Assembly (NCBI GenBank): GCA_002269645.1
Contig: NIVC01001238.1
Coordinates: forward strand, 124,001 to 188,000
Reading direction: 5' to 3'
DNA: 64,000 bases
Origin: Macrostomum lignano
Taxonomy: Eukaryota
Below the pieces are notes generated by a model. The model did no database searches. It was given only the letters and a program-made list of their open reading frames with translations, and was not told where the DNA came from. Positions within the stretch are counted from its first letter, which is position 1, and each line of letters starts with the position of its first letter. Positions 40,601 through 63,922 of the stretch are shown in pieces. Both the position numbers and the translations under genes were made by a program.

Positions 40601-42070
40601 TCGCTAAATCGGCATCAAGCATCGCTGGATCGGCATCAAGCATCTCCGGGTCGGCATCAAGCATCGCTTAATCGGCATCAAGTATCACTAAATCGGCATC
40701 AAGCATCGCTAAATCGGCATCAAGTATCACTAAATCGGCATCAAGCATCGCTAAATCGGCATCAAGCATCGCTAAATCGGCATCAAGCATCGCTGGATCG
40801 GCATCAAGCATCTCCGGGTTGGCATCAAGCATCGCTGGATCGGCATCAAGCATCGCTAAATCGGCATCAAGCATCGCTAAATCGGCATCAAGCATCGCTA
40901 AATCGGCATCAAGCATCGCTGGATCGGCATCAAGCATCTCCGGGTCGGCATCAAGCATCGCTTGATCGGCATCAAGTATCACTAAATCGGCATCAAGCAT
41001 CGCTAAATCGGCATCAAGCAACGCTAAATCGGCATCAAGCATCGCTAAATCGGCATCAAGCATCGCTGGATCGGCATCAAGCATCTCCGGGTCGGCATCA
41101 AGCATCGCTTAATCGGCATCAAGTATCACTAAATCGGCATCAAGCATCGCTAAATCGGCATCAAGTATCACTAAATCGGCATCAAGCATCGCTAAATCGG
41201 CATCAAGCATCGCTAAATCGGCATCAAGCATCGCTGGATCGGCATCAAGCATCTCCGGGTTGGCATCAAGCATCGCTGGATCGGCATCAAGCATCGCTAA
41301 ATCGGCATCAAGCATCGCTAAATCGGCATCAAGCATCGCTAAATCGGCATCAAGCATCGCTGGATCGGCATCAAGCATCTCCGGGTCGGCATCAAGCATC
41401 GCTTGATCGGCATCAAGTATCACTAAATCGGCATCAAGCATCGCTAAATCGGCATCAAGCAACGCTAAATCGGCATCAAGCATCGCTAAATCGGCATCAA
41501 GCATCGCTGGATCGGCATCAAGCATCTCCGGGTCGGCATCAAGCATCGCTTAATCGGCATCAAGTATCACTAAATCGGCATCAAGCATCGCTAAATCGGC
41601 ATCAAGTATCACTAAATCGGCATCAAGCATCGCTAAATCGGCATCAAGCATCGCTAAATCGGCATCAAGCATCGCTGGATCGGCATCAAGCATCTCCGGG
41701 TCGGCATCAAGCATCGCTAAATCGGCATCAAGCATCTCCGGTTCGGCATCAAGCATCGCTAAATCGGCATCAAGCATCGCTAAATCGGCATCAAGCATCG
41801 CTGGATCGGCATCAAGCATCTCCGGGTCGGCATCAAGCATCGCTTGATCGGCATCAAGCATCGCTAAATCGGCATCAAGCATCGCTAAATCGGCATCAAG
41901 CATCGCTAAATCGGCATCAAGCATCGCTAAATCGGCATCAAGCATCGCTGGATCGGCATCAAGCATCGCCGGATCTGCCCGCTGCACCCCGAGGCGAACA
42001 GAAAGACTAGGCGAGTCAACAAGTGCATCAAGAACGTTATCAGAGCGGCCATTGCGAAAGTACATCCTGT
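37630..42070 (+). mobile_element. Decayed Ty3/Gypsy gag-pol remnant, integrase split by a tandem array
   Basis: Fragments NIAFARYQFRLCVQQSGE (gag), PPSRFP..R..V..KLQ.LL..GTIE and GIRIC..IPT..EI..EIAGSKVFSEL (RT), NPADVLSR (RNase H end), IRSDC..FVQSC..C and LFSRY.IP (integrase), and HPEANRK..RVNK.IK after 41975. Many stops and deletions. Confidence 0.75.
39322..41975. repeat. 21-bp minisatellite (atcggcatcaagcatcgctaa / ..ctccggg / ..cgctgg), ~126 copies with higher-order units
   Basis: Direct reading; marker variants recur at 588, 441 and 441 bp spacing. Confidence 0.97.
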
Positions 42071-42661: not shown

Positions 42662-42914
42662 AGCAAAGCAAAGAATCGGAAGGTTTTGGAATAGCAGAGT
42701 GAACAAATTAAAAACAAGGAAACGTCCACCTCAATTTGTGCCTGGCCATTGCAACTCCTGGGCGTCCCCCACTGTGCTTATCCTATAGCATGCCTATGCA
42801 ACTCTGCCGCACTATTTGTCAGTGCGGAGTGAAATAGATAAGAGAGAGAGGCTCTGGTCTTGAGTGTCTGCCTCTGGTGCTGCTAATAAATGAGCAATAA
42901 ACTTTGTAACGGGT
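42662..42914 (+). repeat. Left TIR core; imperfect inverted copy at 63643-63922
   Basis: For example aaacgtccacctcaatttgtgcctggccattgcaactcct...gcaactctgccgcactatttgtcagtgcggagtgaaatagataag is reverse-complemented at the right end. Confidence 0.95.
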
Positions 42915-43014: not shown

Positions 43015-43022
43015 TATATAAG
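43015..43022 (+). promoter_or_regulatory. TATA box (TATATAAG) upstream of the PC4-like gene
   Basis: Canonical motif 84 bp before the ATG at 43106, preceded by an 11-bp perfect inverted repeat (42969-42979 / 42990-43000). Confidence 0.55.
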
Positions 43023-43105: not shown

Positions 43106-43805
43106 ATGGATATTAGTGAAGGTTACAGAGTGCAGGTGCAAGAGTTCGAAGGCCAGAAATACATTGCGATCAGGAAGTTTTGGTGTTCCTGGCTTCAACC
43201 TGAATGTGCAGCAGTGGACGAAGCTAAAGGACTTAAAGCGCTCCCTGGTGAAGTCGGCTCTGAATAACGAGGTCAAGGTCATCAAGCTGGGCTTCGACAA
43301 ATTTATTCAAGTCAAGGATGGCCTCATCTGGCTGAAGCGACTGCCTGAGGACTGCTGCGATGAATTTATGAAGCGCAACACCGTGCCGCTGTCTCCGAAG
43401 CTCTGGCAGAAGCTGTGGCAGACTTCGGACTGGATAGACCAGCAGCTATCAGAGCCCTACCAAGGTGCGGGGGCGAAGTACGAGCTGAGCTCATCCGAAG
43501 ATGAGGTCGAAGACGCCACCGTCATACTGCCAGTCAAGACTGAGCCTGCTGAAGGCGAGGAGGAGGTCCGCTCACCATCGGAGATGACAACCGACATCGA
43601 GGCTGTGACTTCCACACCTTTGGCCAGAGCCGGCACATCGACTGGGAACATCCCGGCGGAGGACACGGACCCGCAGCAGGATCCGGTGTGGTACCGATTC
43701 CGGGCTCATGCCGCTGAGGTGGAGAACAATCGGAAGCGGAAACTGCCATATCCTCTGCGCAGGCAGGAGACAATGAAGGTGTCTAAGCTGCGTTTTGAAG
43801 ACTGA
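43106..43805 (+). pseudogene. PC4/Sub1-like ssDNA-binding / transcriptional co-activator domain protein, one +1 frameshift (TTTT 43178-43181)
   Basis: Removing one T gives MDISEGYRVQVQEFEGQKYIAIRKFGVPGFNLNVQQWTKL, aligning with the PC4 core as recalled ([35 protein letters not shown]); acidic C-terminal tail. Confidence 0.7.
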
Positions 43806-44157
43806 GCTGGAGGTTGGATGAGACTGATGAGACTCAAAGGATAATTCAGTTTGGTTTGCCTTTGTCTAATTTTATTCAGCTAAGTTAAGTTTTGACAATT
43901 GTCGTAACCGTTTAGTCTTACGAGCTATTTATTCAGGTGTTAACAAAACAAATTTATACTTATTTGCACTACTCAATGCTATTATTTCCTGCAATCTTCT
44001 TTTCAAGATTACCAACTGTTCGCAGTCCCCGAGTTAAAAAATAACTCGTGTACACTGTATGAGTTTAATATTGGAATAAAAAAATGTCTTTAAAAATGCC
44101 AATCGTTGCTCTTAAGAAAAACATACCTGTGTACATCTGGTTCTTTTTCATTTGAGG

Positions 44158-45223
44158 ATGGAAAAAATTTACTTTGACCCACAACAGCCGGCTAGTTTTT
44201 CTAGTGCTTCTAAACTGTTGAATGAAGTTAGGAGAAGAGGAGATCCCATATCCACTAAGAGCATAGATCAGTGGCTCAGTGAGCAGCCAGTGCACACCCT
44301 ACACAAGCCAGCTAGAAGGCGATATCCAAGGGCCCCAATCATAGTGCGAGCTATCGATGATCAGTGGGAACTTGACTTGGTAGAAATGATTCCATTCGCA
44401 AAGTATAATAAAGGCTACAAATATATTCTCACATGTATTGACGTACTGTCAAAGTGTGCTTGGGCCAAGGCACTGAAAAATAAATCTGCTGCAGAAGTGA
44501 AGTCAGCATTCGAGAGCATACTGAGAAGTTCAAAGCGCCAGCCACGCACAGTTCGCACAGATCAGGGGAAGGAATTTATCAACTCCACTTTCCGTCAATA
44601 CTGCATTGACAGAGGGATTAGCTTTCCCAACTAACAGCGAGCAGAAGGCGGCTGTCATTGAGCGATGGAATCGGACTCTGAAAAGTAGAATGTGGCGCTA
44701 CTTCACCTACAAGAGCACACTGCACTGGCTTGATGTGCTGCCTAAGCTGGTAAAATCCTACAACAATACTTACCACAGAAGCATCAAAATGGCACCCACT
44801 AGTGTCTGCAAAGAGAATGAATCTGAAGTGTGGATGAACCTGTACGGTGGAAAAGCAGCCGAGACTCTAGAAAAATTAAGGAAGCCTAAGTTCGCTGAAA
44901 ACCAGTCAGTGAGAATTTCCAATGCTCCACGGCTATTCAAAAAGGGATACAAAGCGAGCTGGAGTGAGGAAGTGTACATCGTGGTGAGCAGAGCCCCAAA
45001 ACATTATCCCTACATGTACAAGATTAAATACATGCGGGGGGAAGAGATTCGAGGACTCTTCCATGAGCATGAGCTGCAGGCTGTCCCGGACTCACAGCGG
45101 CTGTATGTGATTGAGAAGATCCTGGAAACGGAGAAGCGGAAGGGAAAGATTCGCTATCTGGTGAAGTGGGCCGGCTACGACTCGACTGGCTGGGTGGATG
45201 AAAAAGACTTAAGAAAGGTTTAG
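44158..45223 (+). pseudogene. Maverick retroviral-like (DDE) integrase with C-terminal chromodomain; frameshift near 44625
   Basis: WELDLVEM..YILTCIDVLSK, VRTDQGKEF, KAAVIERWNRTLK, YNNTYHRSIKMAP; C-terminus YVIEKIL...GKIRYLVKWAGY...WV. Confidence 0.92.
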
Positions 45224-45260: not shown

Positions 45261-46070
45261 ATGCGAACTATTTTGATTAACAGTGAGCATGCTGAAGGTA
45301 CTCCTAGTGACTTTAATTTTTACCTGCCTTCACCTATTTACTTGGATCGAAATGTGGACTATGAGGCAGGTCTGGCTGAAATCCATCTGCCTGCTGCATG
45401 GTTCAATGTTGACGAGCCTTACTGCTTCACTGTCTCAGATGGAAGAGAGCATGAGGCCCTGGTTCTTCAACCCGGACGCTTTGCTAGAGTGGAGGAGCTG
45501 GTGGAGCGTTTGAATCAGCTGCTGGCCAACTCTGATTCGCTGTTCTTTGATGCAATGAGTGACAGGGAGTTTGAGATGGAGGCTGATGAGTCCGGCCTGA
45601 TGGGGCGTAGTGGCAACAGGGAATTCGGTACGAAGTTTGAAATCCGCAACTCACGAACTGTGGTGCACAACAACACTGCGAGAGCAGAGCTGTTTCTTCC
45701 ATCCAGCAAAATTCTGCATTGGCTGGGATTTAGAAACCAGGCTGTGAAAATCCAGTCAGGGAGCCGCATGTCCGAGCACTGCATTGGCTGCCCGCGCACC
45801 AGCTTAATCAATGTGCACTGCAGTATCGTTGAGTCAACTAATTGCAACTTGGGCTCCCTGTTGAGAACAGTTGGAAATGAAAGCCGGCATTGAATGGGCA
45901 ACTATCAAACAAAAATATTTAAGAAAACAATATTCTTCCCGATTTAACAAATCAGTCTTCTTCACAGCATTCGAGTTCAGCTGCGTGAAATCTATGGTTG
46001 CCCACTGATTGCCCAGACACTCAGCCCTGTTCTGCTCACAGTTCAGATTCGGGAGAAACGCATTCAATGA
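45261..46070 (+). pseudogene. Minor capsid (penton) protein; in-frame stops at 45891 and 45945
   Basis: SDFNFYLPSPIYL...YEAGLAEIHLP..WFNV N-terminal signature; the same frame continues ..IFFPI*..IRVQLREIYG..VLLTVQIR to TGA at 46068-46070. Confidence 0.8.
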
Positions 46071-46456
46071 ACTACCAGCAGCTGATCCAGCAATATTCGG
46101 GGGTGAGGACAGGACACGAAAAGCCTGCACTCTATGGCTGTGGGAGCTTTCCGGGGATCATGACATACCAGCCTCCTCCAGCGGCTACATCATCATTCTC
46201 AACGCATAGCAATGTCAGGCGCAAAAGAAATACTAAAGCAAGTCCGAAACGATTGAAGAAGAAGAAGTACACCCGAAAGGCAACTGGTAGAGATCGCACC
46301 AATAAGAGGTGCAATGAAAGAAATCCGAGCAAGGCTAGTAGGAAAAAGCTTAAGAATAGGAAGACGAAAGCAAAGAAGAATGCAGCAGGCGGAGGAAAGC
46401 GAAAGCGAAAAGTCAGCAAGAAAACTGTGAAACGCGTGCTCGACTATCTGTCATAG
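46067..46456 (+). CDS. Highly basic Lys/Arg-rich protein, putative DNA-condensing core protein
   Basis: ATG overlaps the penton stop (ATGA); C-terminal half is K/R-rich; lies between penton and MCP. Function is inference. Confidence 0.6.
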   Translation: MNYQQLIQQYSGVRTGHEKPALYGCGSFPGIMTYQPPPAATSSFSTHSNVRRKRNTKASPKRLKKKKYTRKATGRDRTNKRCNERNPSKASRKKLKNRKTKAKKNAAGGGKRKRKVSKKTVKRVLDYLS

Positions 46457-46458
46457 AC

Positions 46459-47739
46459 ATGGCTTACGGATTCAATCCCAGACTTGATTTATTTAAGACG
46501 CCTGTTCTACAAACCTGCATTGAAAAAGCTACTTATGTTGATTTTCACCCAGTTAATTCCATTACTGCAAACTCCCCCATTGAATTTGACTGCCACCAAT
46601 CTGCCGATGAATACACAGATCTGCTTAATACTTTTCTTTATATTCGCTGCCGCCTTGTGAGACTGGATGGGGGTTTGCTGAGGGAGGATGTTCGAGATGG
46701 AGATGGCATCATCACCGAGAGCAGAGACAGTGACGTGCACCCAGAAAACTTTGTTTTGTCTACAGCCTTCTCAGATGTAATTGTGAGCATTAACCAGCGA
46801 GTGGTGTCTGGTGGAGACCAGCTCTATCCCTACCATGCGTACTTTAAAGCACTAATGAGCTCATCTGATGCCCAGCAACTAAAACTTTACCCAGCTGGCT
46901 TCCTGGAGCCGGACTCTGCAGCTGAAGAGCACACGGAGAGCCACAGGGAATCCCGATGGATGGAGTATGCGGGGCCCCTCTTCAGCGATGTTTTCCAGTG
47001 CCCAGTGTTTCTGCTAAACAATCTGCACTTGCACATCAAACTGGTCCCCAGCGATGGGGCCTTTGCCATCAGAAGAACCCCGAATGTAAACAACGCGGCT
47101 TATCGCATGGAAATCTCTCACAGCATTCTGCATCTTCGCCGAGTCAAAGTGGTGCCTCACATCAGCCTGGCTCACGAGCAGGGGCTGACAAACCAAAATG
47201 CACTGTATCCCATCGAGCGAACTGAAATGCAGAACTTCATCCTACCCCAGGGCATTCAATCTAAAAACATTGAAGGATTCACTCATGGAAAATTGCCGAA
47301 GTTCATCATGCTGGCCTTCGTGAGCCACCGAGCATTCAACGGTCATCATCACGCGAATCCGTTCCAGTTCCAGAGCTTCAACCTCAGCCGGTTGGCTCTA
47401 AAGAAAGGTGGAGAGACCGTGTGCCACGGCGCCTTCACACCTGAAAACAATTCCTTTGTAAGAGAATACTTGCACCACATGAAAAGCTGTCAATCTGCAA
47501 GCAATTCGGTCCCGTGGATCCCCTACCAGCTCTTCTCCAACAACAACACGGTGTTTGCATTCGATCTCACACCAGAGGGAGCGGCTCTGTGGTAGGGACA
47601 GAAGGAGGGCAACCTGCGGCTGGAGATTCGCTTCCGACAGGCTCTGGACGAAGCGGTGTCCCTGATCTCTCTGTGCCTGTATGACTCGCTGATTGAGGTC
47701 ACCAAGCACCGGGAGCTTTTGCTGGACTATTCCTCTTAA
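46459..47739 (+). pseudogene. Major capsid protein (double jelly-roll, Polinton PY type); in-frame TAG at 47593-47595
   Basis: LDLF..P.LQT.IE...VDFHPVNS....PIEF..Y.DL.NT.LYI; NPFQFQSFNL; AFDLTP; the frame continues GNLRLEIRF..AL.EAV....YDSLIEV. Confidence 0.92.
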
Positions 47740-47744
47740 TTGGC

Positions 47745-48254
47745 ATGGACGCAATTCAACTACTTAATCTCGCCAGAAAATTTTTGTCTTGCCGAAAATT
47801 TCTCATCATTACTTTACATTCACGCTATAAAAATTTTTTGCCTTTGAGTCTAAAAAGAAAATATCGATCAATTTCCCTCGAAAATAAGTTTGTTTTTGTT
47901 CTACTACAGCACAATGGTTCATTTGGTCATTGGGTGGTGTGCTATGTTGGACAAGGAAATTGCATTGAGCTGTTCAACTCCCTCGGCTGGGAACCTGAAA
48001 TTTTATCTGTGGTTTATAATTTGTTTCGGGAGATTAAAACAACTGGCTTTTGGCTCCGAAGCAATAAAAACAGATTTCAATGTGCTAACTCTAATAAATG
48101 CGGAATGTTTTGCATCTATTTTGCTTATCAAAAGTTTCTGTTCAATCGATCATTTGAGGGGATTTTGAAGCATTTGCATGCTAATGAAAAAAATCATTTG
48201 AATGATAGAATCTTACAGAGGTTTGAAGCCAACTTAAGAAAAAGATGTGCGTGA
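47745..48254 (+). CDS. Adenain-like cysteine maturation protease
   Basis: GHWV, ELFNSLG (Asn where FDS is usual), FQ...SNKCGMFC. Confidence 0.85.
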   Translation: MDAIQLLNLARKFLSCRKFLIITLHSRYKNFLPLSLKRKYRSISLENKFVFVLLQHNGSFGHWVVCYVGQGNCIELFNSLGWEPEILSVVYNLFREIKTTGFWLRSNKNRFQCANSNKCGMFCIYFAYQKFLFNRSFEGILKHLHANEKNHLNDRILQRFEANLRKRCA

Positions 48255-48480
48255 TTTCTAATATTTATGCATTAGACATGGCAGAAAAGCGAGTTTGCTA
48301 CGATATCCGCCTCAGGCAGGGAAGCTGCATGATTGTCTGCGGGCCCACCAATGCAGGAAAAACAACCTTTGTCAAACACCTGATCCAGTACAGAGACGTC
48401 ATGTTTGATGTGAAGCCTGGCAGAGTTCTGTGGTACTATGGGATCTCACAGGCAGGCCATGCAGAACTGAGCAGCCTAGG

Positions 48481-48858
48481 TATGACGTGAGCGAGTTCGA
48501 GATGTAGTTAGCGATTAATTAATTATTAGTTATTTATTTATTAGTTAGCTAGTTCAATTATTAGTAGTGTTGACACGCAGGGTACGAGACAAAACGCCGC
48601 GTTGAGGAGAGTACAAAAACGAGCTCGAGGCAACATTTAAATTGGCGGGGAAATCCGATTCATTTAAACCTAAGATGTCTATCAAAAAAGTAATAATAAC
48701 TTGGACTTAAATAAATAAAACATGAAGTACATTTTTTTCTAAATAAATTACATTAAATTAATAGCTGGGGAACCTGAAAATTAATCAACTACAATAATTT
48801 TAAGTAATAAAAACTCAGATAGAAACTAAAAAGTTAAGATGCTAACGACGTCGTCACA
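48481..48858 (-). mobile_element. 378-bp solo-LTR-like insertion with 5-bp TSD CTAGG
   Basis: Ends T[A]TGACG...CGTCACA (TG..CA with one change, 7-bp inverted ends); CTAGG at 48476-80 and 48859-63; AATAAA on the minus strand. Confidence 0.75.
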
Positions 48859-49089
48859 CTAGGTGTGCAGCTGCGCCAGGGATTTCCCACCAACATCGAG
48901 GCAGCACTTAGGCCCTATGACCTGGTTGTTTTCGATGACTTAATAGAGGAAACTTCAAACTCTGCTTCAATGCAAAATTTTTTCACAGGAATCGCACATC
49001 ACTTGCCGTGCTTCTTGGTGATGCTGACTCAGAATATATTTTTCAAGGGAAAAGAGTCGCGAACAATGAGCTTAAATGTAATGTACTTA

Positions 49090-51237
49090 CAACAACAACA
49101 ACAAAATACGCTGTCAGGATGGCAAAAGTCTGCGTCACAGGGCGCGCTTCATGGCTTGGGCGCGAACAAAGGCCGCGCCACCGGCAGTGTCCGGGGCGCC
49201 GGCGTCAGCCAGCAGACAGTCGACATAACGCCGAGTTCGCGCTTGACCTCGCCGGTAGGGTGCCTGCAGCGTGAGCAGCAGCACCTCCTGCACCAGCTGT
49301 GGGCAGTACGACTCGGCGCGGATGAGATGGCCTGCGAGCTGGAGTCGCCGACGGCGCAGTAGATCACTTGGACGTGGCAGGCCAGCGCGGCGATAGAGTG
49401 CCGCGTTGGTGACTCGCTCGACGCCGATGTTGAAGGCGGCGCGCAGCAGGCCAGCGTGCGCCGCATCGACTTGCTGTTCGAGTGAGTCCGTCAGCGTCCA
49501 GGTCTCGGCGTTGTACAACAGGACGGTCTCGATTACCGCCTGGAACAGTGCCGCCCTCTGGCGGTCCGGTAGGGCCTCGGACTGCAGGACTGCCCTCACA
49601 GAACGAAAGGCAGCCCAGGCAAGCCCGCGGCGGCGTCGCAGGTCCTCGCGAGCTTCTGGAACCAGACCGCCGAGGTAGACGAACTGCTGACATCGCGGGA
49701 GTTCGGTCGCCTGCCCGTCAGCGCCTCGGCAGAATATTGCAGCCTCGATGTCGTCCGGCACGCAGAGCACAACGGTCTTCTGCGTGTTGACCACCAGGCC
49801 GACACTCGCCGCAACGGCAACTAGCCTGTCCAGCTGCCGTTGGGCGCCCTCGACGGTCGAGGACAGCAGGGCGAGGTCGTCGGCGTAGCCAAGCACGCTG
49901 AGCCGCTTCTCCGGTTGACGTCGACCCACGCGTCGCTGCAGCAGAAAACCATCGTCGTCGGTAGGAAGAGCAGTCCGCAGCACCCAGTCAAGCACCAGGA
50001 CGAACAGGAACGGCGCCAGCGTATCTCCCTGAAGTACTCCGGAGGATGTCTCAAAGGAGTCCGATAGGCCATCCGGTGTTGTCACAGCAGCTGTCGTATC
50101 ACGGTACATCGCCATGATGGCGGAGATCAGCTGCTTAGGCACGTTGTACGCACGGAGCACCATTGGAAGCACGGCTCTGACAACCGAGTCGATTGAAATC
50201 AATAAAGATTAGAATCAGGATCGACTGGCGAATCCGCGCCTCCTCGATGACTCGGCGAAGAGCCAGGATCTGCGCCACTGTGCCGCGAAGGGGCCGGAAC
50301 CCGTTCTGCTCTGGGCGCAGGTACGGATCCAGCACGGGCTGCAACCGCGAAAGCAGCATCCGGTTGAACAGCTTCGCTGCACAGGACTGAAGGCAGATGT
50401 CTCGATGGTCTTCAAGCCTAGTGGTGCCCGGCTTCTTTGGAACAGCGACGATGTGCGCCGTGGTCCATTTGTTGGGCGCCGCCTCACCGAAGAGCACGCG
50501 GTTCATCACTCTGGCGACCTCAGCGGCCACACAGGGGATGCGCAGCGCCTCGATGGGCACCTCGTCCGGACCCAGCGCTTTCCCGCCCGGTGACTGCTGG
50601 GCGAGCTTGACAACGTCGGCTGCGTTGACTGGGGCTACGCTGAAACTCTCCTCTGCCGGCAACGGCGTCTCCGGCGGCAGCGTCAGACTGTCTGGCAGCG
50701 GGGGTGGCGGCGCGTTAACGATGGCGGCGAAGAACTCGCGCAGCTCAGCGTTCCTGCGCTCGTCCGGAGTGTCACAGCCAGGTTCAGCGGATTGCGCCGC
50801 TTTCGCCCCGTCAGAGCGTTGATGGCGGACCAGGCCACGCGCCCTCTGGCATCGGGCCCAGCGGCAGAGACAGCCTGAATGGCGTCATCGACAGCCGCTT
50901 GTTGGCGCTGCAGGTAGACAGCCGCCAGAGCTGCCTCTGCCTCGCGGGTTGGTCGCCTGCTCAAGCGGAGCCTCTCCAGATCTTCCCTCGCTGCCTGAAT
51001 CGCAGGGTCGTCCTGCCAGACCGGCTGTCCACGTTGAGCCGGTTGCATCATCGGGACTGCTTGCTCCGCGGCGGTTCTGACTGCAGCGCACTCTTCCGCA
51101 TACTCGGCACTTCCACGCTTGTCGCCCAGCGCGGTGTTAAAGGCGCTAGCAAAGCGACGCTGCGTATCGGTGGCTCTGAGTGCGCGGTAGTAGCGCCGCG
51201 GTGGCCGCTTCGGCGGACGGTAGAGCGGATCGCGAAG
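49090..51237 (-). mobile_element. 5'-truncated RTE-like LINE with a (TTG)n tail and 7-bp TSD GTACTTA
   Basis: RT motifs GPDEVPIE, QNGFRP.RGT, GVLQGDTLAPFLF, YADDL, FVYLG; (CAA)n at 49090-49104; TSD at 49083-89 and 51238-44; frameshifted. Confidence 0.88.
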
Positions 51238-51506
51238 GTACTTAGCTATCTTGAAAAACCCCAGAGACCAGCTGCAGATTTCAGCACTGGGCAGGCAGTG
51301 CTTTACAGAGAAGCCCGGCTTTCTGCTGTCAGTGTTCAAGCACGTGACCGCGCAGAACAGGGGAGCTTACCTGTTCCTAGACTTTCACCGATCAACTCCC
51401 GATGAGCTGCGAGTGCGGGCCAGAATTCTGCCCAACCAGCGACCCCATCTTGTATTTGCTTAAGAAAGTGAAGCTTGTTTTTTTATCAGCTATTGTTTTC
51501 ATCGCT

Positions 51507-51857: not shown

Positions 51858-52560
51858 GATGTTGATGCAGAATTTGAAGCCGAATGAGAATAGCACTGAC
51901 GCTAACTTGAAGCAGGCTCAGAAGAAATGCGATGATATCTTGTAGTGTGCTTTGTGGGCGGCCGTAGGCCGCGTACAAAGTGTGTTAGGGGTGGCGGGGT
52001 GGCGTCTGCGTTGGGGGGGGGGGGGGTTGTCGCGGGGCAGCTAGCTTTTAACCCCCAACTTGTGCTCTGCTCGCGGTGTCCAAAGTTTGCTGGCCAAACG
52101 CAAGCACGCTGGAAAAGAAGGAGCACGCAATATTGAAGCCAAGTTGATGAAAACAGAGACACCACAGATGAGCACCTGGGAAGAGAAGATCAGCAAGTCG
52201 GTGCCACAGAAATTCAAAACCAGGGCTCGCAGTCTATGGACGATCGTATCCACCAATCCAGAGCTGATTCGAGTTTGTGAAAACGAGGAGGTGGATACAT
52301 ACTGGACTTGATTCAGCACACAGTGAGGGATTCGCCATGTGCGCGTGAACCAGTTGGCTGGAATGAGTTCATCGATTTGCTGCAGCAGAAAAAGCTTAAT
52401 GTTCCGCTTTCCGCTGTTGGTAAATCAGTTAAAAAGAAAATGGCAACCAGCAGAGGGAGTGAACTGGAGAAAGAACAGGCGAGTCTAGTCAAGGGGTACG
52501 GGAGCAACACAGCCTGGCTGAAACTGCCCGGAAGAAAAGTAAATATAAGAAGGTGGACTG
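51811..52560 (+). pseudogene. Conserved Maverick-type ORF of unknown function, interrupted by a 147-bp insertion and a frameshift
   Basis: MVLIPKAEY start; ISKSVPQKFKTRARSL; DLIQH..R..PVGWNEF..LL....NVPLSAVG. Removing 51943-52089 restores DDILLAKRKH in frame. Confidence 0.6.
51943..52089 (-). mobile_element. 147-bp non-autonomous insertion with a subterminal hairpin (Helitron/Helentron-like)
   Basis: TTG on both sides; stem ctttgtgggcggcc-gta-ggccgcgtacaaag a few nt from one end; no TIRs. Confidence 0.45.
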
Positions 52561-52589: not shown

Positions 52590-53063
52590 ATGAACTACAT
52601 TGACTTCCAAGGATTCCCGTGCAACAGCACAAGCAAAAATTTGTTGTGAAAGAGTTGGCAGTTGTTCAAGTCAGAGCGGGAAGCTACCGAATTGCTCACC
52701 ATGTGTACGCACCTCCGTATCCATGGGAGAGAGTCTCCCCTGACATGCGAGTTTGCTACAGACAGCTATCAAAGAGTGTGCACCAGTTTAAGTGGAACGA
52801 TGGAACCCGTCCGTACATGGAACTGGCGGAAGACATTCTGAGGATTGCCAGTGGTCCGATCTGGACAAATGGGGAAAGGAAGTCTATTTTCCTGACTGAG
52901 CTGCTTGGTAGACAGGTTTATAACCTAGAAGATTTGGGAGCACCCTCGACTGAAGATTCAGATACTGGCTGCGCAGTGAGAAATTCATTGCTGCACTACA
53001 GTTGGCTTAAGCCAAAGTTCTGCATCAACTTAAGAAGCGAGCAGTGTCCGTGGCACAGGGGCA
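52590..53063 (+). pseudogene. Maverick-type ORF with D-x-Q-G-F motif, putative DEDD/DnaQ-like nuclease; frameshift in an A-run near 52635
   Basis: MNYIDFQGF + FVVKELAV, PPYPW, H..KWNDG..PY, VYNLEDLG.P, C.WH. Fold assignment is inference. Confidence 0.5.
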
Positions 53064-53105
53064 GTGAATTTGGCAGAAGATTTGGTGAAGAAGTCAAGGA
53101 TCGAA

Positions 53106-53693
53106 ATGAGTCCACCTGCAGCTACAGCCCTAAGAGTGACCAATCTGGTTGGCGGAGTGGATCTGAGACTGGATGGTGGCAGGGGCGCCCAGCTGCCTCT
53201 ACGGGAACTGGCTCTCAGCATGGCTCATGTGATCTACCGGCCCGTCTGGCCCCGGGTGCTCATCAAGCGGATGCGGAGTCCCAGAGTGACTCTGCTACTC
53301 TACCCTACTGGACAACTGAGCATCTGTGGCGCCAAGACCCAGACCGCAGACGCCAAAAGGGCTGCCCGTCGCTCCGTGGCTATGCTGCATCGGAGAGTGC
53401 CGGATCAACTGCTGCCTCATTAAACAATTTGTGTTCGAATTAAAACTATTACTGCTCATGGACGTTTTAAGCTCCAAAATGCGCTACCGCTTACTGAACT
53501 TGTTAAAGTTTTGCCCAAAGCCCAGTATGAACCAGAAACATTTTCAGCTTTAGTTTGTCAACTTAACTATTGTAAATGCTTGCTTTTTCATAATGCTTCT
53601 TATATTCTAAGTGGGGCGAAATCTCTGCGTATGCTAAAATTCGACAGTTCTTCCCTGTTTCGCTCTGTTAACACACTTATGCAACTAAAATAA
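53106..53693 (+). pseudogene. TATA-binding protein (TBP)-like gene with both core repeats; one in-frame TAA at 53421-53423
   Basis: Repeat 1 RVTNLVGGVDL..LPLRELALSMAHVIYRPVWPRVLIKRMRSPRVTLLLYPTGQLSICGAK..AKRAARR parallels TBP [59 protein letters not shown]. Repeat 2 LPLTELV..AQYEPETFSALV...LLFHNASYILSGAKS parallels SSYEPELFPGLI..LLIFVSGKVVLTGAK and lies in the same frame. Confidence 0.85.
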
Positions 53694-56600
53694 AGCACAA
53701 TAATTATCCGTCTTTAATCTTCCGACAAGAACTAGCAGAAAAAAAACTTTAATATGCCTTGTTTACTAGTTTTATTTTTTGGTTACAAAAGATGCTAAAA
53801 AAATTGTCAGCAAACTGCAACACAGCGAAAATTAATACTAATATTAAAAGAACATAGGAAAAGAAAGAAAATGAAAATGCTAACACTCATAAAAGTTAAG
53901 CAAGTTTTGAAAAAGCAATGGCACGTTAAAGAAAAGTACTATAGCATTTATGCGGACAACATGTACATTGCGTTCCAAAAACCAAAATGCAAAGCTGAGC
54001 AAATGCTCAATTCAAAGTACGCACTAGTCAAATGTATGCTATTGCATCCTCATTTGCTTGGGAGCCTGATCAGCAGCTAGTTGAGGTGCTTCTCGATTGT
54101 AACGGCGGCAGCTGTGGCGGCAGGGGTCTCTTAGAGCAAAGTGCCCATACGGAAGACTTTGGTTTGGGGAAGTCCACGCACGCTTGTCCTCCCATACAGT
54201 CAGGGCACGCTTCTGTTGCTCTAAAGTGACTACTCTGTGTCGTCGGCTAGCGATTCTGCGTGTCAAGACGCGAAGCTCCTTCAAACTGGCAAACGCCTGC
54301 ATGTAGTCATCGTGTGTGATTTCTGCCCGCAGCACACTCTTCTGAAAACCTTTGGCTGTCTTCTTCCCTCCAGACTCGGCCTTCATCGAGTATAGTTTTG
54401 GTCTCAAAAGGATCCATTCACGATGGGGGTTGCCTGCAGATTCGTCCTTTATGCAGCCTAACTTGGCTTTTAGATCATCGGATCGGAATTGATGGTCGGC
54501 CGGGAAGTTTGAGGTATCTAGCAATCGCTGGCGAATGAGTTCTGGTAGAACAGCACTCTGAACATCGATGTTTTTAAAGCACAGAAAGAAGGAATCGGTG
54601 TCCCCACTGCATAGGGAAACTCCTTGTTGGAGAGCAAGATTCTCAAATGTTGGCTTTAGCTTTTCATAGTACAATCGGTACATCGCCAGCTTAGAGTCAT
54701 CTAAAACACATTGACCAACGTAGATTGGGCGGTCAAGAGTGACTGATGTCTTGAAAAATTGAAAAACTACTAAGTCTTGAGTCACAATCGTAAAGTCCTT
54801 AAGATTCGGACGCGATGAATAGATTTCGGACTGCTCCTCGTTGTTAGAAATTCGAACACTGAGCCTCTTCCGTACGTTTTCCATCGTTTTGCCGAACAGG
54901 GAGTTATTCTTCAGTTTGTAATAGTCTTTTTCGAATTCCGTTGTAGCCACTGAGCGCTTTTTGCTGTTTCTGTCAATGTAGGCTTGGAAAATTGCAGCTT
55001 GACAAAATCGAATAGCTCTTCGGACCTTTTTTAGTCGCATACCGTGACGCAAGTAGAACTTCAAAATTCAGAAATACACGACGTAGGATTCCTTGTCATG
55101 ACATGTGAGTAAAAGTTTCACACAGCCTTTGTACGGCTCGTTGCGAGTGTTCAATTCGCCCCAAAGACGTTTCATGAATGGCGGAAACTCTTCGAGCTTA
55201 GGCGCGGCCTTCTCGGGGGCAAATGGCAAATCTTGTGTCTGCGTGTGGATTACATCTGGATATTCCAGATCAACCTCAAATAGGTAGCCAACTGGACCAT
55301 CGTCATCCAATTTAAGTAGCTTCTCTTCTGTCCATTCACACAGTTCTTCTTCACTAAGCCACTCAAAGTCACTGACGGGTCGTTTTTCGGACAGCGCTTG
55401 CCCGTAGAGATTATTCATGTCTACGGGGAGCAAAGAATTTGTCTCGGCATTGGAAGCTGCGCTTGATGAATCTGCACCATCTGACGACTGGTGACTGGTG
55501 ACTGGTCTGGCAGTAACATGATGAAACGAAACGATTCCTCCACGAATGCCAAGCTCAAAGAGTCTGTACTTCTCAGCATCGTCGAGCAACTGGAGCGGTG
55601 TTGGCGCGGATTTCAGCGCGGAATCAAATGATAGACCTGGTGTAGTAAAGTAGTGGGCCGGGTCAAGACCGTCATCATGGAGACTCAAACGGCGAAAGTT
55701 CTGAAAAACATCGGCAAGTTGACGGATGTCAAGCTGCAGGTAGGCAAGCATGTAGTCGTGCAAATTTTTGCTTCGATCTGCTCCCAGGCTTTGCGCGCAT
55801 GAGCATAGCTCTCCTCACTGCAAGCTGTCTTTGTCAGAGAGTTGAAAAACTCTTCTCTGCTCGGAAGTTCGGTCACTGCCAAATTCGCGGGGGATTTGAC
55901 GAAATCATAGGGAAAGACTCCCTTGATAGACAAAGTTTCATTAGTTAACTTTGGAAAGCAGCTTTTCATTTGCTGAGTGAATTTTCTGTCCTGGAGAGGT
56001 AAGTTGCGAATCAGTTTGTCTAGACCCGCGTTTAAAAACTAGAATGAATCGAGGAACTGCAGAGTGAAGAAAATTGTTTTCTTTTTGCCTTTCGGTAGAG
56101 TGATTTCGGCGATTGGGAAATCTACTCGAAGAGACACATAGCGTTCAGAAGTCTGAAGAATGACACTCAGCTTCCAGTTGTTCATATTTCCTAACGCTGT
56201 TGAAAACAGGAGGTGCATGTCATAATTTCGGAGATTATGGAAGAAAATCGGCAGAAATCTTCGGCGAAGTTGCGCTAATTTGTTACACCGTGAACATGCG
56301 GCGCCTTTGAATTTTCCAGTCAGATGATCATGATCATAGTGCTTGTCATTAGTGTCAGTAAACTGTCGATCACAGTAATGACAGTTGGAGGATTCACTGA
56401 AGATTTGACTAGCAGTAGTGTCTGCTTCAGCCGTTTGGTAGCTGTGCCTTCTGTTCCATTCATAGACTTCTCGAGCCACGCGTTCCGGCTCATGAAGAAA
56501 CGTTTCCATACACTCGAATGGATTCGAACTGGAGACCAACTTCACCTGACCTTGATCCTTGAGTGGTGGTCCCTTCATGCCTTCACGAGCAACGAGTAGA

Positions 56601-56700
56601 AATCCACCCGCTGCAGGCAGATGCTCGGTAATAAAGACAGTTTTGCCAGTTACCATGCCCTCATCTGGTCTTGCTTGTACATGACTGCTGCTGCTGCTGC

Positions 56701-59700
56701 TTCTTCTTTTTTTCTTCTTCTTCGGGGCGCCTCCGTTCCGGCTAGGCCGATCTGGAGGGGGGCGTGGACCCCGAGGGGAGCCGCCCCATGCTGCGTAGTA
56801 GTCTGACGATGGCCTCCGGGGACCCCATCAGGTCGCTCGGGACCAGGCCGCTTCTGCTCCGGAAGTGGTCGCCGCGGGGGCAGTGGAGGAGCAGATGCTC
56901 AGCCGAGTCCTCCGCGCCGCAATCGGGGCAGGCGGGGGACTGTTCCAAGCCCAGGCAGTGTCTGGTGCTAAAATTGATGGTGCTGGCGCCGGACCGGAGC
57001 TGGTTTACCAGGACCTGGAGGCGTCTGGGGAGGCTGGTCGGCGGCTGCAGTCTCGGCGGCAGGACTCTGGCGTCTAGCATTCTGCGAGAGCGACGAGCGG
57101 CTGCCCTTGCCGCGTCAAGCTCGATCGGCACCGCCTGTTGGTCGAGCCCGGCCGCGTTGGCGGCGGCGCGGTCGGCCGCCTCGTTGCCGGCAACCCCGCA
57201 GTGGGATGGCACCCAAGCGAAGTGAACAGGGCGGTCCATGGCGATCAGGTTGAGGAGTTTACTCCAGCAGTCCGCGGCAACTGAGTTTTGCTGGCACAGG
57301 GGTCCGGCGCTGAGCGCCTGGATGGCGCGAAGGCTGTCCGTGGCGATAGTTATGGCGCCCGTGGGCGGCGCCGGGTAGTGGGCGATGTCTAAGGCCTCCC
57401 TGATGGCGCAGAGTTCTGTGGTAAAGCTGCTGCAGAGCGCACCAGCCGCGACGAGGCGGGCGTCGTCGTCCGGTAGCCACTGGGCGATCGCCGCTCCGCC
57501 TCCGTTCGTGAAACCGCCAGCCGCGGATCCGTCCGTCCAGATGACGTGTCCGGAGGTCTCCAGTGGGCCGACGATTTGCCTGGCGATGTTGGCTTTCATG
57601 GCCGCCGGCATGTCGCGGCTGATAACCTTGCTGAGCGAGACATCGAACTGGACGCGGCCGGCCTCGGCCACTTCCCACGGTGGGGGACCGAGGGGTCGGT
57701 GGGCCCGGGGCGTCCTGTCCAATACCTCGCGACAATCCAGCTCCCGCGCCGCGCGCCTCCAGCAGCCGCGGAATTGACGACGGGCGTCGAGGTCCCTGTC
57801 CGGGAGGCGCTGATTGACCCCCTCTGCCTGGTTCTGCCGGTTGGCGGCTTCGAAGGCGCGGTTTTTGAGGCGCGGGGTGGTGACCGCTGTCGCGATGCTC
57901 TGCGATGGCGATCCGTCCGGGAGGCGAGCCATCCGCTCTCTCAGCGTGCACGCGCGTTCGATGGCAACGTGGCTGAGGGGCGGCAGCTCGGCGATGCTAA
58001 GGAGATTTTCAGTGCGGGCCGTGGATATGCAGCCAGTAATCAGGCGCGCGCATGCGTTCTGCTGGCGCTCGACTAGGAGCCTGGTGCTCGGTGCCGCTCC
58101 CGCAAGCCATACGCCGCTGCCGTAGTCCGCCACAGCTCGGATAGTGGCAACGTAAACGGTGCGGAGGATGCTCTGCGTCGCACCCGTTTGCCGGTGTGCG
58201 ATGGCCTGCAGTGGGCGTCTTCTGGCAGCCATGCGGCGACGGATATCTTTGGCGTGCTCCGCGAACCCAAGGTGGTCGTCGAACTTAACGCCGAGGAAGA
58301 CGGGGTTGGACTCGAAACGAAACTCGCTGCCGCCGATGCTGAGTTCGACTCTGGTCTTGCCGCGGTTCTCGTTGGGGCACAGCGTGAAAGTACTGTAACT
58401 GCACTTCCCAGTGCTGAGCACGACCTTGTTCTGGTCGCACCAGCGGGCCACGGAGTCCAGAGCCGGTTGCACGATGTGCCCGCAGCTTTCGAGGTCCGTA
58501 TGGCGCGCTAGGATGGCCGAGTCGTCGGCATACAGACTAATCTCGGCTTCCGGCGATGCTTCCGCGATGGCAGTTGGCAGGTCGTTAACGTAGACCAGCC
58601 AGAGCAGAGGGGCGATCACCGAGCCTTGGGGCAGGCCTTCCCGGAAGATGCGCTCTCTGCTGAGGCTATTGCCGAATCGGACGCGCGCTCTCCTGTCGCT
58701 GAGGAAGCTGTTGGTCCAGCGCAGGACGCAGGCGGGGACTCCCAGCTTCTCGAGCTTGCAGATCAGGGACTTCCGCCACACCTTGTCATAGGCTCTGCTG
58801 AAGTCGAGTAAACAGAGGATCGCTCTAAGCGCAGGAGTCTCTTCCAGCCCATCGAAGATAAGCTGGGCGATGCGGGCGATCTGCTCTTCGCACGAGCGTC
58901 CTTTGCGGAAACCAGCTTGGACTTTGCTGAGAGTGCCCTTGGATTCCAGCAGGAAGTTCAGCCTTTGGTGCGCCAGCCGTTCCGCGACCTTGGCAATGCA
59001 ACTGGTGAGGGCGACGGGGCGATACGAACCCGGGTCGTCAGCCGGTTTGCCGCGTTTCGGGATCGGGATGATAATCGCCCTGCGCCACTGGTGGGGGCAG
59101 TGTCCGCTGAGCCAGGCCTTGTTGATCAGGTCAAGTAGTCGCTGCTCGGTCCGTTCGGGGAGACGCTTGAGCATCTCGTTGGACACTCCGTCCGAGCCGG
59201 GGCTCTTTCTGGATTTCAGCGACCTCATGGCCTGCTTAAGTTCCACGGCGGAGAAGGCGCCACAGATCTGCTGCTTGTGGTCGGGCTCGCAGCAGCGCGC
59301 TTTGGTGGCGGCGTAGGCACACCTGTTGACCCCGCGATCCGACCTCCTGCGCTCCACGCGAGACACGTCCGCGTGCAGGGTGCAGAAGGCATCCGCTTTC
59401 CCCTTGTCCGTGACCGCAGTCCTCTGCCGGCGGCATCTGATCTCATCGGCCGGGATGACAAGGGCCGCGTTGGGGGGGGGGGCGGCGGGGGCTCGCCCCG
59501 CATCGCCCGGGCCAGGCCGAAGAGGTCGCTGTTGACGGACAACTCCGCGACTCGTTCGTCCCAGAAGCGGAGCTTCTCGACCTTGATCGTCTCATCGGCG
59601 CGGCGTCTGGCGAGGTGGTACGCCGAGATGTCCTCCACCGTCTTGGTCTGCTCGGCCTTTTTCCGCGCGGCGCTGCACTGGTTGCAAGCGGCGGCACACG

Positions 59701-61571
59701 CTTCGGTCCAGAAAGGTTTGCCGGTGTTGCGACACGCGCCGCGCGGGATACTGCCGGTCGCTGCTCCGAGGATGATGTCGCAGAGCTGTTGGTGGTCCGC
59801 GTCCGTGCTCGATTTCTGCGCGGTGGTGATGCCTTGCAAAGTCTCCTCCTCCGCGTCCAGTCGGGCCGCGTAGGACGTCCAGTCCGCTTTCGCGTAGCTC
59901 CACTGGGCCTGTCGTTGGGGACGTTTGGCCTGCTTGTCTCTGGAGAGGGTAAAGGTAATAGGCAGGTGGTCGCTTCCGAGGTCCTCGGAGGTGCTCCGCG
60001 ACGTCCTGACGTAGGCGGCAAGATCACCGGAACACCAAGTGATATCCGGGCAGCTCAGGCCGCCTGTCGCCGGGTTGGTCCGCGTGTGGGCATCCTCGCG
60101 GTTGCCAAGGTGGAGGCCCCGGTCGCAAGCCCACCCCTCGATGCTGTCTCCTCTCTCGTCCTCAGGTTGATGGCTGTCCCATTGTCCATGGCCATTGAAA
60201 TCGCCGGCAATCACCGTGCGGGGCGCGACCGGTATGTCTGACCAGGCTGGGAGCCAGTTGTCCTCCGCGCGCTGGTTGCTATTGGGCGGGGCGTAGACCG
60301 CCACCAATTGGATCTGGCCAACAGCAGCCGGGCAGATGGTCACCGCCGCGTAGTCGAGCAGGCCGCCCCTGCTGACTTCAGGGTTCTTGAAGGGGACGTC
60401 ATCGCGAACCAGGATCAGCACTCCTCCCCTCCCCGTCGGGCGCTGTTTCTTTTTGCAGTTTTTTGGCTTTCGGCCGTTCGGGGCAGGTTCGGCGTCGCCC
60501 TCAGGTTGAGGAAGGGGCGGCGGGTCGGGCCGGCTGGCTTCCCCGGCGGGTCGGGGGGCTTGAGCGTTCCGGCGCTGAGCTGAGGACTGGTTCGCGTGCC
60601 TACAGCACGGGCCTTCGAATGGCACTGAGTATTGCTTAACGGTAGCGAGGCCGCTGCATTTGAGGTGGAGCCACCCGCTGCAGCTGGTGCACTGGACGCT
60701 GTAGCTGTTCCTGCGGATGACCTTGCTGCAGTCCGAACAGTGCCACAGACCTGCTTTCTTGTTGGCCGGTCCGCTCTCCGCCACTCTCCGCGCTTCCGGC
60801 GGGTCCGGGGGAGTGCGGACCCGGGGGGTCGTCAGATGGGGCAGGCCACGGGAGGTCGCGGTTGGAGCAGGCGGAGCGGCCACTTCTGCAGCCGTTGCAC
60901 CAGCCGGTCTTGTCCTGGGGCCATCGGAGGCGGCACCTAGGACGAGTGAGGCGGCGGGTGGTCGGAGCCTCCTCTCCCGCAGGCATTCCATCGTTAGTTC
61001 TCTGGGTGGTATTCGCGGTGGCGGCGGGCTCGGGATCGAGTTTGGCCTCGCCGTCTTTCCAGGCCGCCACGTGGTAACCCTGTGGCGGGTGGAAGGCCGC
61101 TCCTGGGCGGAGCTTGGTCTCCTGGAGCAGGACAGCGACGGGTTGGGTACGGGCAAGTCTCGGTACCGTTGGGACCGAACGGTAAAGCGGACCGATACCC
61201 CGATCGGGCCGGCTGAGGGTTCGGTGCAGGAGGGCCATCAACCTCCTGTGGCATGCGACTGCGTCCACGACGCGCCCCTGGACTCCGGAGACTGTACCTG
61301 GTAATTCGTCCTACCGGATGACGAAATGTCGCTCTTTACGGGGATGCTGCGAAAATTCCAACCGAGTCAACGACGACCTTCCGGCCGCCCCCGATGACAA
61401 CGCCAACCTGCATCGGGTTCTCCGTCTACGCGGAGGCGACAGTAACGTTACAGCTCCGTCCCGCCAGACCAGAAGCAGCAAAAAGCGAGGAAGGGGACAC
61501 AGGTCCGGCTCAGAGCTCCAGGTCCTCCAGTTCAATTGCAACGGACTGCAGGCCCGCCGCACGGAGCTAGC

Positions 61572-61572
<1 letters not shown>
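56701..61572 (-). mobile_element. Near-full-length Ingi/I-group LINE (APE with PHD insert, RT, RNase H, CCHC), (GAA)n tail, 5' ~410 bp inverted; inserted in a (CTG)n tract
   Basis: LQETKL, GGVLILV, YAPP, AGDFNGH, GSDHLPI; QAGFR, LDFSRAYD, GLPQGSVIAP, YADD; WTDGS, TELCAI, TDS, WVPSHCGVAGNE.AD; CPDCG....EHLLLHC. APE motif I (LQFNCNGL) is on the opposite strand at ~61525-61550. Confidence 0.9.
61230..61332 (+). ncRNA. Predicted HDV-like self-cleaving ribozyme at the LINE 5' end
   Basis: P2 gcgac(61255-59)/gtcgc(61328-32); P3 gcg/cgc around L3 UCCACGA; P1 3' strand gcccct then GG for P1.1; P4 tccgg/ccgga; J4/2 CGAAA with candidate catalytic C61322. P1 5' strand (gagggc) has one mismatch. Confidence 0.55.
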
Positions 61573-61604
<32 letters not shown>

Positions 61605-62987
61605 GTGTGCTGCAGACTTGCTCATTGTCGCTGACCTCCATTTCCTCAACCTTCTGATGCATGTCCTCTCGAGTGTGGGGGCCTAGCGGAGAATTAAATG
61701 CTTCAATATCAGCATAGATGGCGAACGGTGCTTCAATAGTTTTGAAGTAGTTTTGAAAAGACAGCACGCTGCGCTTCTCAGTAGGAACTCGTTCCTTGAC
61801 AGCAAACTCATTAGAGCGATAGCACTGCTCTCTGTGCTCATTTAGCTTCTGATCAGTTACGAAAGAGCTCAAGCAGCGTTCACACCACTTTCTGTGGTAA
61901 AGACCGCTTTTACTGTTTAGTAGCCTATCAAGGCTCACAATTCCGCACCAGTGTTTATCCTCTTCATCCTTGTTAGCTGATTTGTTCAATAGTAGGAGAA
62001 GAACTACTTTGCGACTGCATGCGACTTCAACTCGTGGCTGCCTCAGCACACTGACACCGTTACTGCTTGACCAAGAAAAAACTACAAAACATAACCTTGG
62101 GTTCAATAATTCGATTCGTTTTAGCTGGTTGAGTCCAACGGGTAAGGAAATTCCTGAAAGATTGATATCGTTCAACCAGTCCTTGTAAGTAGAAAACCTT
62201 TGAGGGTTTTTCCTCAAATTCTCATCACCGTGATGCAGCACTGCAAGGCAGGCATACAAAAAACAATCAGAGCCAGTACTAGGAGGATTGATGACGGCTT
62301 TTTTGCCTTCAGCAGAGGAGGTAATTCAAAATTGCTTGCGTGACCAGAGTAGAAGCGCAGTCTTTGACCAACCGCAATATTCAAGTCGATGCAGTTGACG
62401 CGCACAATCACCCAACCACTGCCATTTGTGTTCATCTTCTCAATGATGCCTTCGCAACCATCAATCTGCTGCTTCCACCAATCATCAAAGCAAGCGGCGT
62501 CATTGACAGGTTGCAAACGAGTGCTGCTTACCCATCTTTCTTCCTGGTTCACCACTTCACCAGCTTGGATTCTGTTCATTCGGATGCTCATTTTTAGCTG
62601 CGCTCTAACTAAAAGATTTGGGTTCACCATCTTCTCGAATACAATTCGCTGTATTGCTTCCCTGCTCCGTCGGGCGAGTTCAAATGGATCACATGGTGCA
62701 TCGCTTGGCACGGAAATTCGATACACCACCAGGGTTTCGTTGTGCGCACTTGCTACTTGCTGAATGTCTAAAATAAAAAAATTAACAGCTTTGCTTATTT
62801 TCTGTTACTCAAAGGATGATATTCCATGGTAATGAAATTTAGACTCAATAAGCACACTTAAATTGAATTTCTCGATTTTTAAATACAAAACTTCGAATGC
62901 ACCCAGGAATTAAATAACTTAAGGCTGAAATTAAAAATGTTGTTGACTCACGATAAGGATGAATATTGCTGGCACCGTTGTTTTCGA

Positions 62988-63642: not shown

Positions 63643-63922
63643 ACCCGTTACAAAGTTTATTGCCCATTTATTATCAATCCCAGTGCGCCATAGGCAGACA
63701 CTCAAGAACCAAGACAAGAACCTCTCTCTTATCTATTTCACTCCGCACTGACAAATAGTGCGGCAGAGTTGCATAGGCATGCTATAGGATAAGCACAGTG
63801 GGGACGCTGAGGAGTTGCAATGGCCAGGCACAAATTGAGGTGGACGTTTCCACGCTATGCCTACCTTGTTTTTAATTTGTTTACTCTGCTATTCTAAAAA
63901 CCTTCCGATTCTTTGCTTTGCT
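63643..63922 (-). repeat. Right TIR core of the Maverick
   Basis: Reverse complement of 42662-42914 with small indels. Confidence 0.95.

Follow-up and report, generated by a model that had tools for sequence, protein, structure and literature searches.

Can a Maverick/Polinton carry a TATA-binding protein (TBP) of its own and, if so, to what use might a virus-like element put it? The question is raised by a gene on the plus strand (positions 53106–53693) of a 64,000-nucleotide stretch of the Macrostomum lignano genome (contig NIVC01001238.1, positions 124,001–188,000; the whole stretch is referred to below as the window), for which a first-pass annotation had proposed a two-repeat TBP fold broken by one nonsense codon. 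Both points were borne out. The frame of 195 codons runs from an ATG at 53106 to its end at 53693 and is interrupted by a single TAA at codon 106 (53421–53423), between the two lobes; its read-through translation, with X at the break, matches the Pfam TBP family PF00352 in two stretches (E 1.4e-17, 63.7 bits, with a curated cut-off of 22.9 bits), and each half alone also passes the cut-off (E 3.2e-10 and 4.5e-6). All 35 sequence matches of the protein in the PDB were to TBPs or TBP fusions. The model of an open homologue (P0002, 78% identical to the window protein; pLDDT 89.5), computed from an alignment of 12 rows, all of them Maverick-type proteins, resembled solved TBPs with TM scores of 0.79–0.84, the 40 best PDB rows listed all being TBPs, and its best match among viral models (BFVD) reached a TM of 0.75, below the cellular TBP matches. 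On the strength of these profiles and this predicted fold, we regard it as confirmed that 53106–53693 encodes a two-repeat TBP-fold protein inside a decayed Maverick. The motifs TNLVG and YEPExF and both GAK motifs can be read in the translation, as had been reported, and the protein is 24% identical to the host TBP, in agreement with the earlier remark that its sequence lies far from cellular TBP. Splicing around the codon-106 stop was considered and rejected, no joint being found at that place among those shown. Contigs from four of four runs, which were taken for RNA on a guess, extend over its 5′ part and were not counted as evidence.

The element surrounding this gene has decayed: it is broken in several places and contains nested retroelements, and the window copy is dead. 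Its terminal inverted repeats (82-nt perfect arms and three more arms) were found at 42684–42914, where the outer end is not fixed, and at 63643–63899, where the repeat may extend beyond the window end. Between them the plus strand carries a frameshifted PC4/Sub1-like gene (43106–43805; Pfam PC4 E 8.5e-5 on the first 30 amino acids, below the curated cut-off, with a homologue in the second family, B, described below), a frameshifted rve integrase with chromodomain (44158–45223; rve E 1.5e-13), a penton candidate assigned by position (45261–45893; no Pfam match), a putative basic core-like ORF (46067–46456), a major capsid candidate with one internal stop (46459–47740), which is a conserved ORF of 420–440 amino acids in all families and has no specific Pfam match, and an adenain-like protease (47745–48254; Peptidase_C5 E 6.9e-4, below cut-off). 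These are followed by a packaging ATPase (48278–51463), recognized by a Walker A piece and broken by a 0.4-kb insertion and a 2.2-kb fragment of a reverse-transcriptase element, whose homologue in locus L050 matches Pox_A32 above cut-off, and by an upstream conserved Maverick ORF (52590–53443), frameshifted near its start, which overlaps the TBP N-lobe by about 112 codons. A protein-primed polymerase candidate lies in pieces on the minus strand (54039–62804), interrupted by a LINE at about 56.7–61.5 kb; its broken pieces gave no Pfam polymerase match, they contain motifs which we take to be those of a protein-primed polymerase, and the region is a conserved long ORF in related copies. With polymerase fragments facing it at 54039–56827 (minus strand), the TBP gene occupies the position first described for it: the last on the sense strand, within the inverted arms, convergent on the polymerase pieces and intronless. 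Terminal inverted repeats, rve integrase, ATPase, adenain, and the polymerase and capsid candidates are features shared with the Mavericks/Polintons/adintoviruses of Starrett 2021 (PMC8502044).

Several other features of this region were noted. An endonuclease-VII-like stretch lies within the polymerase region (56042–56827, minus strand; E 1.2e-8), two nested non-LTR retroelements occupy about 49.1–51.2 kb and 56.7–61.5 kb, the second of them with endonuclease, reverse transcriptase and RNase H, and a 21-nt unit is repeated about 125 times at 39204–42000, immediately left of the element, with one frame open for 901 codons.

Intact copies, for which the first-pass annotation had proposed a search of the same genome, were found there. 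A genome search returned at least 152 matches (150 of 233 candidates scored), with 97 of the best 101 stop-free, these counts not being copy numbers, since the host TBP appears three times with identical scores and the assembly must be partly redundant. The upstream Maverick sequence was common to all 29 other loci fetched, and gene order and orientation were the same in eight of eight longer subfamily loci, though their polymerase pieces are 32–63% identical to those of the window. After two of 37 loci had been excluded for stops, dN/dS between nine representatives was 0.12–0.43 in 35 of 36 pairs, the exception being a near-identical pair with four differences; the element TBP is under purifying selection. 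The TBP of the second family, B, is 36–40% identical to that of family A, to which the window belongs, with the same gene order from capsid to TBP, and its best 26 genomic matches are all stop-free; host TBP and a TRF2-like gene each have a locus of their own.

Protein searches gave further relatives and a group of minimal TBPs of ~170 amino acids, a pattern from which led to 23 metagenome loci. The protein is encoded at 21 of these, and 15 of the 21 adjoin a Maverick integrase, capsid or ATPase in other gene order, many of the 15 being closely related and amounting to about two lineages. PC4 genes stand next to or near TBP in L059, L063 and L070, with two PC4 domains in L059 and L070, and the PC4-like gene of the window has a counterpart in family B (L031, 3702–4385), both below the Pfam cut-off. 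Searches of viral contigs with the A/B alignment, P0043, P0035, a DNA pattern and an ATPase alignment gave nothing related. Two 160-kb viral contigs obtained with the clade-C alignment (L047 and L048) were set aside, inspection having revealed no Maverick-like genes in them; both carry an archaeal-looking TBP.

An intronless gene with a broken window copy might also be a passenger retrocopy or a recent capture of host TBP or TRF2, though the host TBP core is likewise intronless. In a quick tree of 69 rows, families A and B joined (95) and fell outside the group of cellular TBP/TRF2 (98), with no clear position relative to clade C. In a careful tree built on 32 of the 77 rows aligned, from which the other short proteins of the quick tree, whose context is unknown, were excluded, A, B, C and two short proteins formed one clade (97/91), apart from eukaryotic TBP/TRF2 (100/98); named giant-virus TBPs were absent from both trees. 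Placing A and B with host TBP or with TRF2 was rejected by AU tests (p 0.0004 and p 0.002, respectively), and the comparison with host TBP/TRF that the first-pass annotation had proposed thus revealed no nesting in host paralogs. Together with the low identity to host TBP, the purifying selection, the synteny in two families and unrelated contigs, and the absence of a poly(A) tail after the stop of the window gene, these tests make a retrocopy or recent capture hardly credible, and the view that this is a long-held Maverick gene stands. A single origin of the Maverick-type TBPs is likely, judging from these trees, and only likely because long branches could draw the element proteins together.

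What such a protein could do depends on the surfaces it has kept. All four intercalating aromatics had been thought retained, with W48 as one of them, which was not upheld: both sequence and profile–profile alignments place P49 at the first repeat-1 Phe site (F99, in the yeast numbering of Table 1 of PMC12529657) and W48 opposite the preceding Arg, the alignment to host TBP setting YRPVWPRVLIKR against a 12-residue host TBP stretch. W48 was discarded as an intercalating residue on this alignment and because the second Maverick family has no Trp there. The window protein keeps three of the four (Y66, F146 and F161), and clade C mostly retains all four sites; with this Phe lost in families A and B, their bending of DNA may be weaker. 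From the canonical Asn/base-reading set N13 (N69) is kept and T114 (N159), T116 (V161) and S147 (P191) are changed, S147 replacing the conserved Pro after F146, and RIKTITA aligning with KIQNMVG of host TBP, which places the repeat-2 Asn site on T114. At the N159 position all 54 Maverick-type rows have Thr, whereas the 21 cellular rows and the two host proteins all have Asn; at the V161 position each of the 54 carries Ser or Thr. Genomic context is missing for most of the Maverick-type rows, and some of the "cellular" rows are classed by appearance. The acidic stirrup of the C-lobe is present as E142-P-E144 in the window protein and as E-P-E in 12 of 12 A/B proteins; its Glu residues contact TFIIB, according to PMC7221094. 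Two repeats, the saddle fold, the repeat-1 Asn and Val, the E-P-E stirrup and three aromatics are shared with cellular TBP/TRF and archaeal TBP, whereas, in contrast to cellular TBP, the Maverick protein is without an N-terminal extension, has Pro at F99, Tyr at F116, Thr at both N159 and V161 and Ser at P191, forms a separate clade and is encoded by a mobile element. Judged by its sequence, it is a member of the TBP fold family that departs from canonical TBP in two defining features.

The junction with the preceding gene also differs from what had been described. The two genes had been said to follow one another with no spacer; instead, the upstream frame has no stop at the TBP start and remains open to 53443, overlapping the whole N-lobe. 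Over the N-lobe this frame is stop-free in seven of eight family-A and two of three family-B copies examined (the window, L037–L044, L031 and L032, without L040), where synonymous shuffles predict 4–5 stops in A and about 2.4 in B (P up to 0.005 and about 0.04, respectively). An open upstream frame in both families could represent an overprinted extension or a programmed frameshift, either being possible. Nucleotide identity between L002 and L037, L042, L043 and L044 falls from 92–100% to 61–72% at the lobe boundary (about 53420), from which it follows that a recombination point lies inside the TBP gene, the particle module taking the N-lobe along and the polymerase side the C-lobe. The upstream ORF itself (window 52590–53100; L037 4911–5420) matches mostly arthropod-labelled clusters in Atlas (0.95–0.97), where there is also a weak Maelstrom-domain lead (0.88).

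If the protein reads DNA, a candidate target is found in the element itself. A NNTAAGAA box precedes eight of the 11 sense-strand starts in the window, five of them at 45–53 nt. On the plus strand, CTTAAGAA stands at 44111–44118 (47 nt before the integrase), 45208–45215 (53 nt before the penton candidate), 46349–46356 (110 nt ahead of the capsid gene; less certain, as it falls within a lysine-rich ORF), 48233–48240 (45 nt before the ATPase), 51459–51466 (48 nt before ORF 51507, overlapping the ATPase stop codon) and 53029–53036 (within the upstream ORF and in its frame, 77 nt ahead of the TBP start, with identical letters in nine of nine related family-A sequences); TTTAAGAA is found at 45918–45925 (149 nt before the basic core-like ORF) and TATAAGAA at 52544–52551 (46 nt before ORF 52590). 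The protease, ORF 51811 and PC4 have no such box before them in the window. Boxes of the NNTAAGAA type mostly lie 33–55 nt ahead of particle-module start codons; in L050, a 1555-codon ORF (about 4.7 kb) upstream of the ATPase module is preceded by TATATAAGAA. A canonical TATA, TATATAAG, is located at 43015–43022 (plus strand), 91 nt before the PC4-like gene, and is presumably an early promoter read by host TBP; in family B and in L069 it is the TBP gene that has a canonical TATA in front of it. The first-pass annotation had named the TATA at 43015 as the element's target: the box does exist, and it is probably the wrong target, because it is a canonical TATA before the PC4-like gene and the particle genes carry NNTAAGAA.

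Compared with 400 dinucleotide shuffles, the values of which are not corrected for the motif having been picked by eye before counting, TAAGAA is enriched on the sense strand of the window (8 vs 2.6 expected, 1/400 shuffles as high), family B (7 vs 1.8, 1/400), L038 (7 vs 1.6, 0/400), L050 (11 vs 2.7, 0/400) and L051 (7 vs 1.8, 2/400), more weakly in L055 (4 vs 1.5, 23/400), with 0–1 antisense occurrences in the same sets; the host control gave 5 vs 2.6 (46/400), the TBP-less L074 four matches (36/400), and a blind hexamer scan placed TAAGAA among the top six in only one of six TBP-bearing sets. Thirteen related clade-C contigs contain 60 sense and five antisense occurrences, 22 of the 60 lying 25–60 nt before a long ORF vs a 12% background, with a cluster at 32–37. 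Several of the boxes fall on the stop codon of a preceding ORF or on Leu-Arg/Arg-Lys-Lys codons, and those in frame are written with TTA, a rare codon for Leu (4 of 112), kept in nine of nine related sequences at two sites. If the box is the equivalent of a TATA, its distance of 33–38 nt from the ATG in clade C implies a 5′ UTR of <10 nt.

Three Maverick-like families of the same genome (L072, L073 and L074) have TATAAG/TATAAA boxes instead, TATAAG occurring 6, 4 and 3 times vs 1.3, 1.1 and 0.8 expected. No TBP was found in the 9.9 kb retrieved for them, of which ~5 kb is element in each case, nor by a clade-C query on their contigs (110 of 110 candidates scored). These boxes fix the register and imply that the TBP-bearing families are relaxed at positions 1–2. 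The C-lobe of TBP reads the 5′ half of a TATA box, and a change at L205 helps to admit G at position 2. Positions 1–2 are CT in family A, where the P191 site is Ser, CA/TA in family B, where it is Asn, CG/TG in lineage C1, where P191 is kept and the L205 site is Cys/Ser, and CA in lineage C2, where P191 is Asn and F190 is changed; only four lineages underlie this covariation. According to PMC12529657, a preference for T at position 1 is conferred by P191. Lineages whose boxes begin with CT/CA have lost this residue, yet C1 keeps it and mostly has C at position 1.

On these sequence patterns, we consider it rather probable that the element TBP is a promoter-specificity factor, with host TFIIB and Pol II being used for the late genes. 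The redirection of Pol II to late promoters that the first-pass annotation had suggested would thereby gain indirect support, from the shared box and from the retained stirrup. Once the element is active, early genes behind a canonical TATA (the PC4-like gene, and TBP itself in families B and C) would be read by host TBP; the element TBP would then bind the degenerate box, which host TBP would read poorly, and, so bound, recruit host TFIIB and Pol II, perhaps with the help of the element's PC4. Use of the host TFIIB and Pol II is proposed because no element-encoded TFIIB or RNA polymerase was found: none of the 27 window ORFs, broken pieces included, matched a TFIIB or RNA polymerase Pfam family, though a very remote homologue could escape. 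Integrase, capsid, penton and ATPase would in this way come under an early-to-late switch, and in family A, where the box also stands before the TBP gene itself, positive feedback would be expected.

Other functions have to be weighed against such a switch. The protein might be a TBP substitute with no specificity of its own, i.e., a booster escaping TFIID/Mot1/NC2 control or acting where host TBP is scarce, and TAAGAA might be read by way of an initiator-like element, a host factor or a stop/re-initiation context; the late TAAG of baculoviruses is an initiator-like element. The short box-to-ATG distances in clade C, the many boxes overlapping stop codons and the related TATAAG box in families with no TBP detected would all fit this reading, as would the suggestion, in PMC7221094, that viral TBPs may evade host regulators. 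We nevertheless consider it unlikely, as in-frame boxes are held in rare TTA Leu codons, the box register matches the TATAAG of the TBP-less families, and the changes on the DNA-reading face are invariant.

That the TFIIB stirrup is the best-kept surface, and that families A and B have lost a Phe and an Asn from the DNA face, could instead point to a decoy or repressor, which would titrate host TFIIB or other TBP partners or shut host or element promoters. Such a role appears distinctly improbable: clade C mostly keeps all four aromatic sites, the changes on the DNA face show fixation and not drift, the genes share a box, and PC4 adjoins TBP in clade C. Positive evidence for the sequestering of host factors, the other possibility raised in the first-pass annotation, was not found. 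TBP folds bend DNA, and a non-transcriptional use of this bending at the terminal repeats, for replication, integration or packaging, would agree with the C-lobe half moving with the polymerase side in recombinant subfamilies; we regard it as very improbable in view of the retained stirrup, the location of the boxes before genes and the absence of any WTAAGAA in the terminal repeats. A promoter-specificity factor for late genes remains our preferred reading.

The closest known parallel is ORF24 of KSHV, a vTBP of beta/gamma-herpesviruses, for which PMC12529657 describes a likewise viral TBP fold, a variant TATA proposed on late genes (TATTWAA; NNTAAGAA here) and the use of host Pol II, and in which the V161 site is polar, as in the Maverick TBP. 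ORF24 is, according to the same paper, a multidomain protein that binds Pol II directly and acts as part of a viral complex of six proteins; all four Phe are present in it, as are N159 and P191. The Maverick TBP, in contrast, consists of the core alone, with its TFIIB stirrup intact; no families matching the six-protein complex were found among the 27 window ORFs, and TBP is there a 195-residue core only. By analogy, the Maverick TBP probably works like the herpesvirus vTBP, without being a member of that family. The TBP-like proteins of Nucleocytoviricota also share the virus-borne TBP fold; most of them, according to PMC7221094, come with their own TFIIB and a diverged stirrup, whereas in the Maverick the stirrup is kept and a TFIIB gene was not found.

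The first-pass annotation did not know TBP as a described Maverick gene, a statement that has to be qualified, since the legend of a figure in Starrett 2021 (Fig. 5; PMC8502044) bears a bare "TBP" label on related elements. This is the sole mention of TBP in that text, from which the words "promoter" and "PC4" are absent, and sections 7 and 8 of PMC7221094, on viral TBPs, contain no match to "transpos". In the openly accessible literature searched, we found no other precedent for a Maverick TBP and no analysis of its residues, phylogeny, promoter box or mechanism, and literature on the promoters of such elements was found only for protist virophages and Polinton-like viruses. Precedent for the presence of TBP is therefore thin, while we met no description, in the literature searched, of the family, of its signature residues, of the NNTAAGAA box or of the link with PC4, all of which appear to be new.

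A broader proposal, which we make tentatively and hold to be somewhat less probable than its opposite, is that the Maverick-type TBPs are one old viral family, in which C-lobe residues and box have diverged together by lineage (CT, CA/TA, CG and CA), and which, with PC4, would form the smallest known late-transcription switch, one that operates with the TFIIB and Pol II of the host and is shielded both from host TBP and from the other families of Mavericks sharing its nucleus. Large numbers of short "TBP" annotations in invertebrate assemblies and metagenomes are explained as genes of elements rather than host paralogues, and the natural pairs of TBP and box would constitute a test series for how TBP reads the first bases of the TATA. 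With a named factor and a named box, the way in which Mavericks/Polintons activate their capsid genes, and the existence of a staged, virus-like cycle, would become testable in a laboratory animal.
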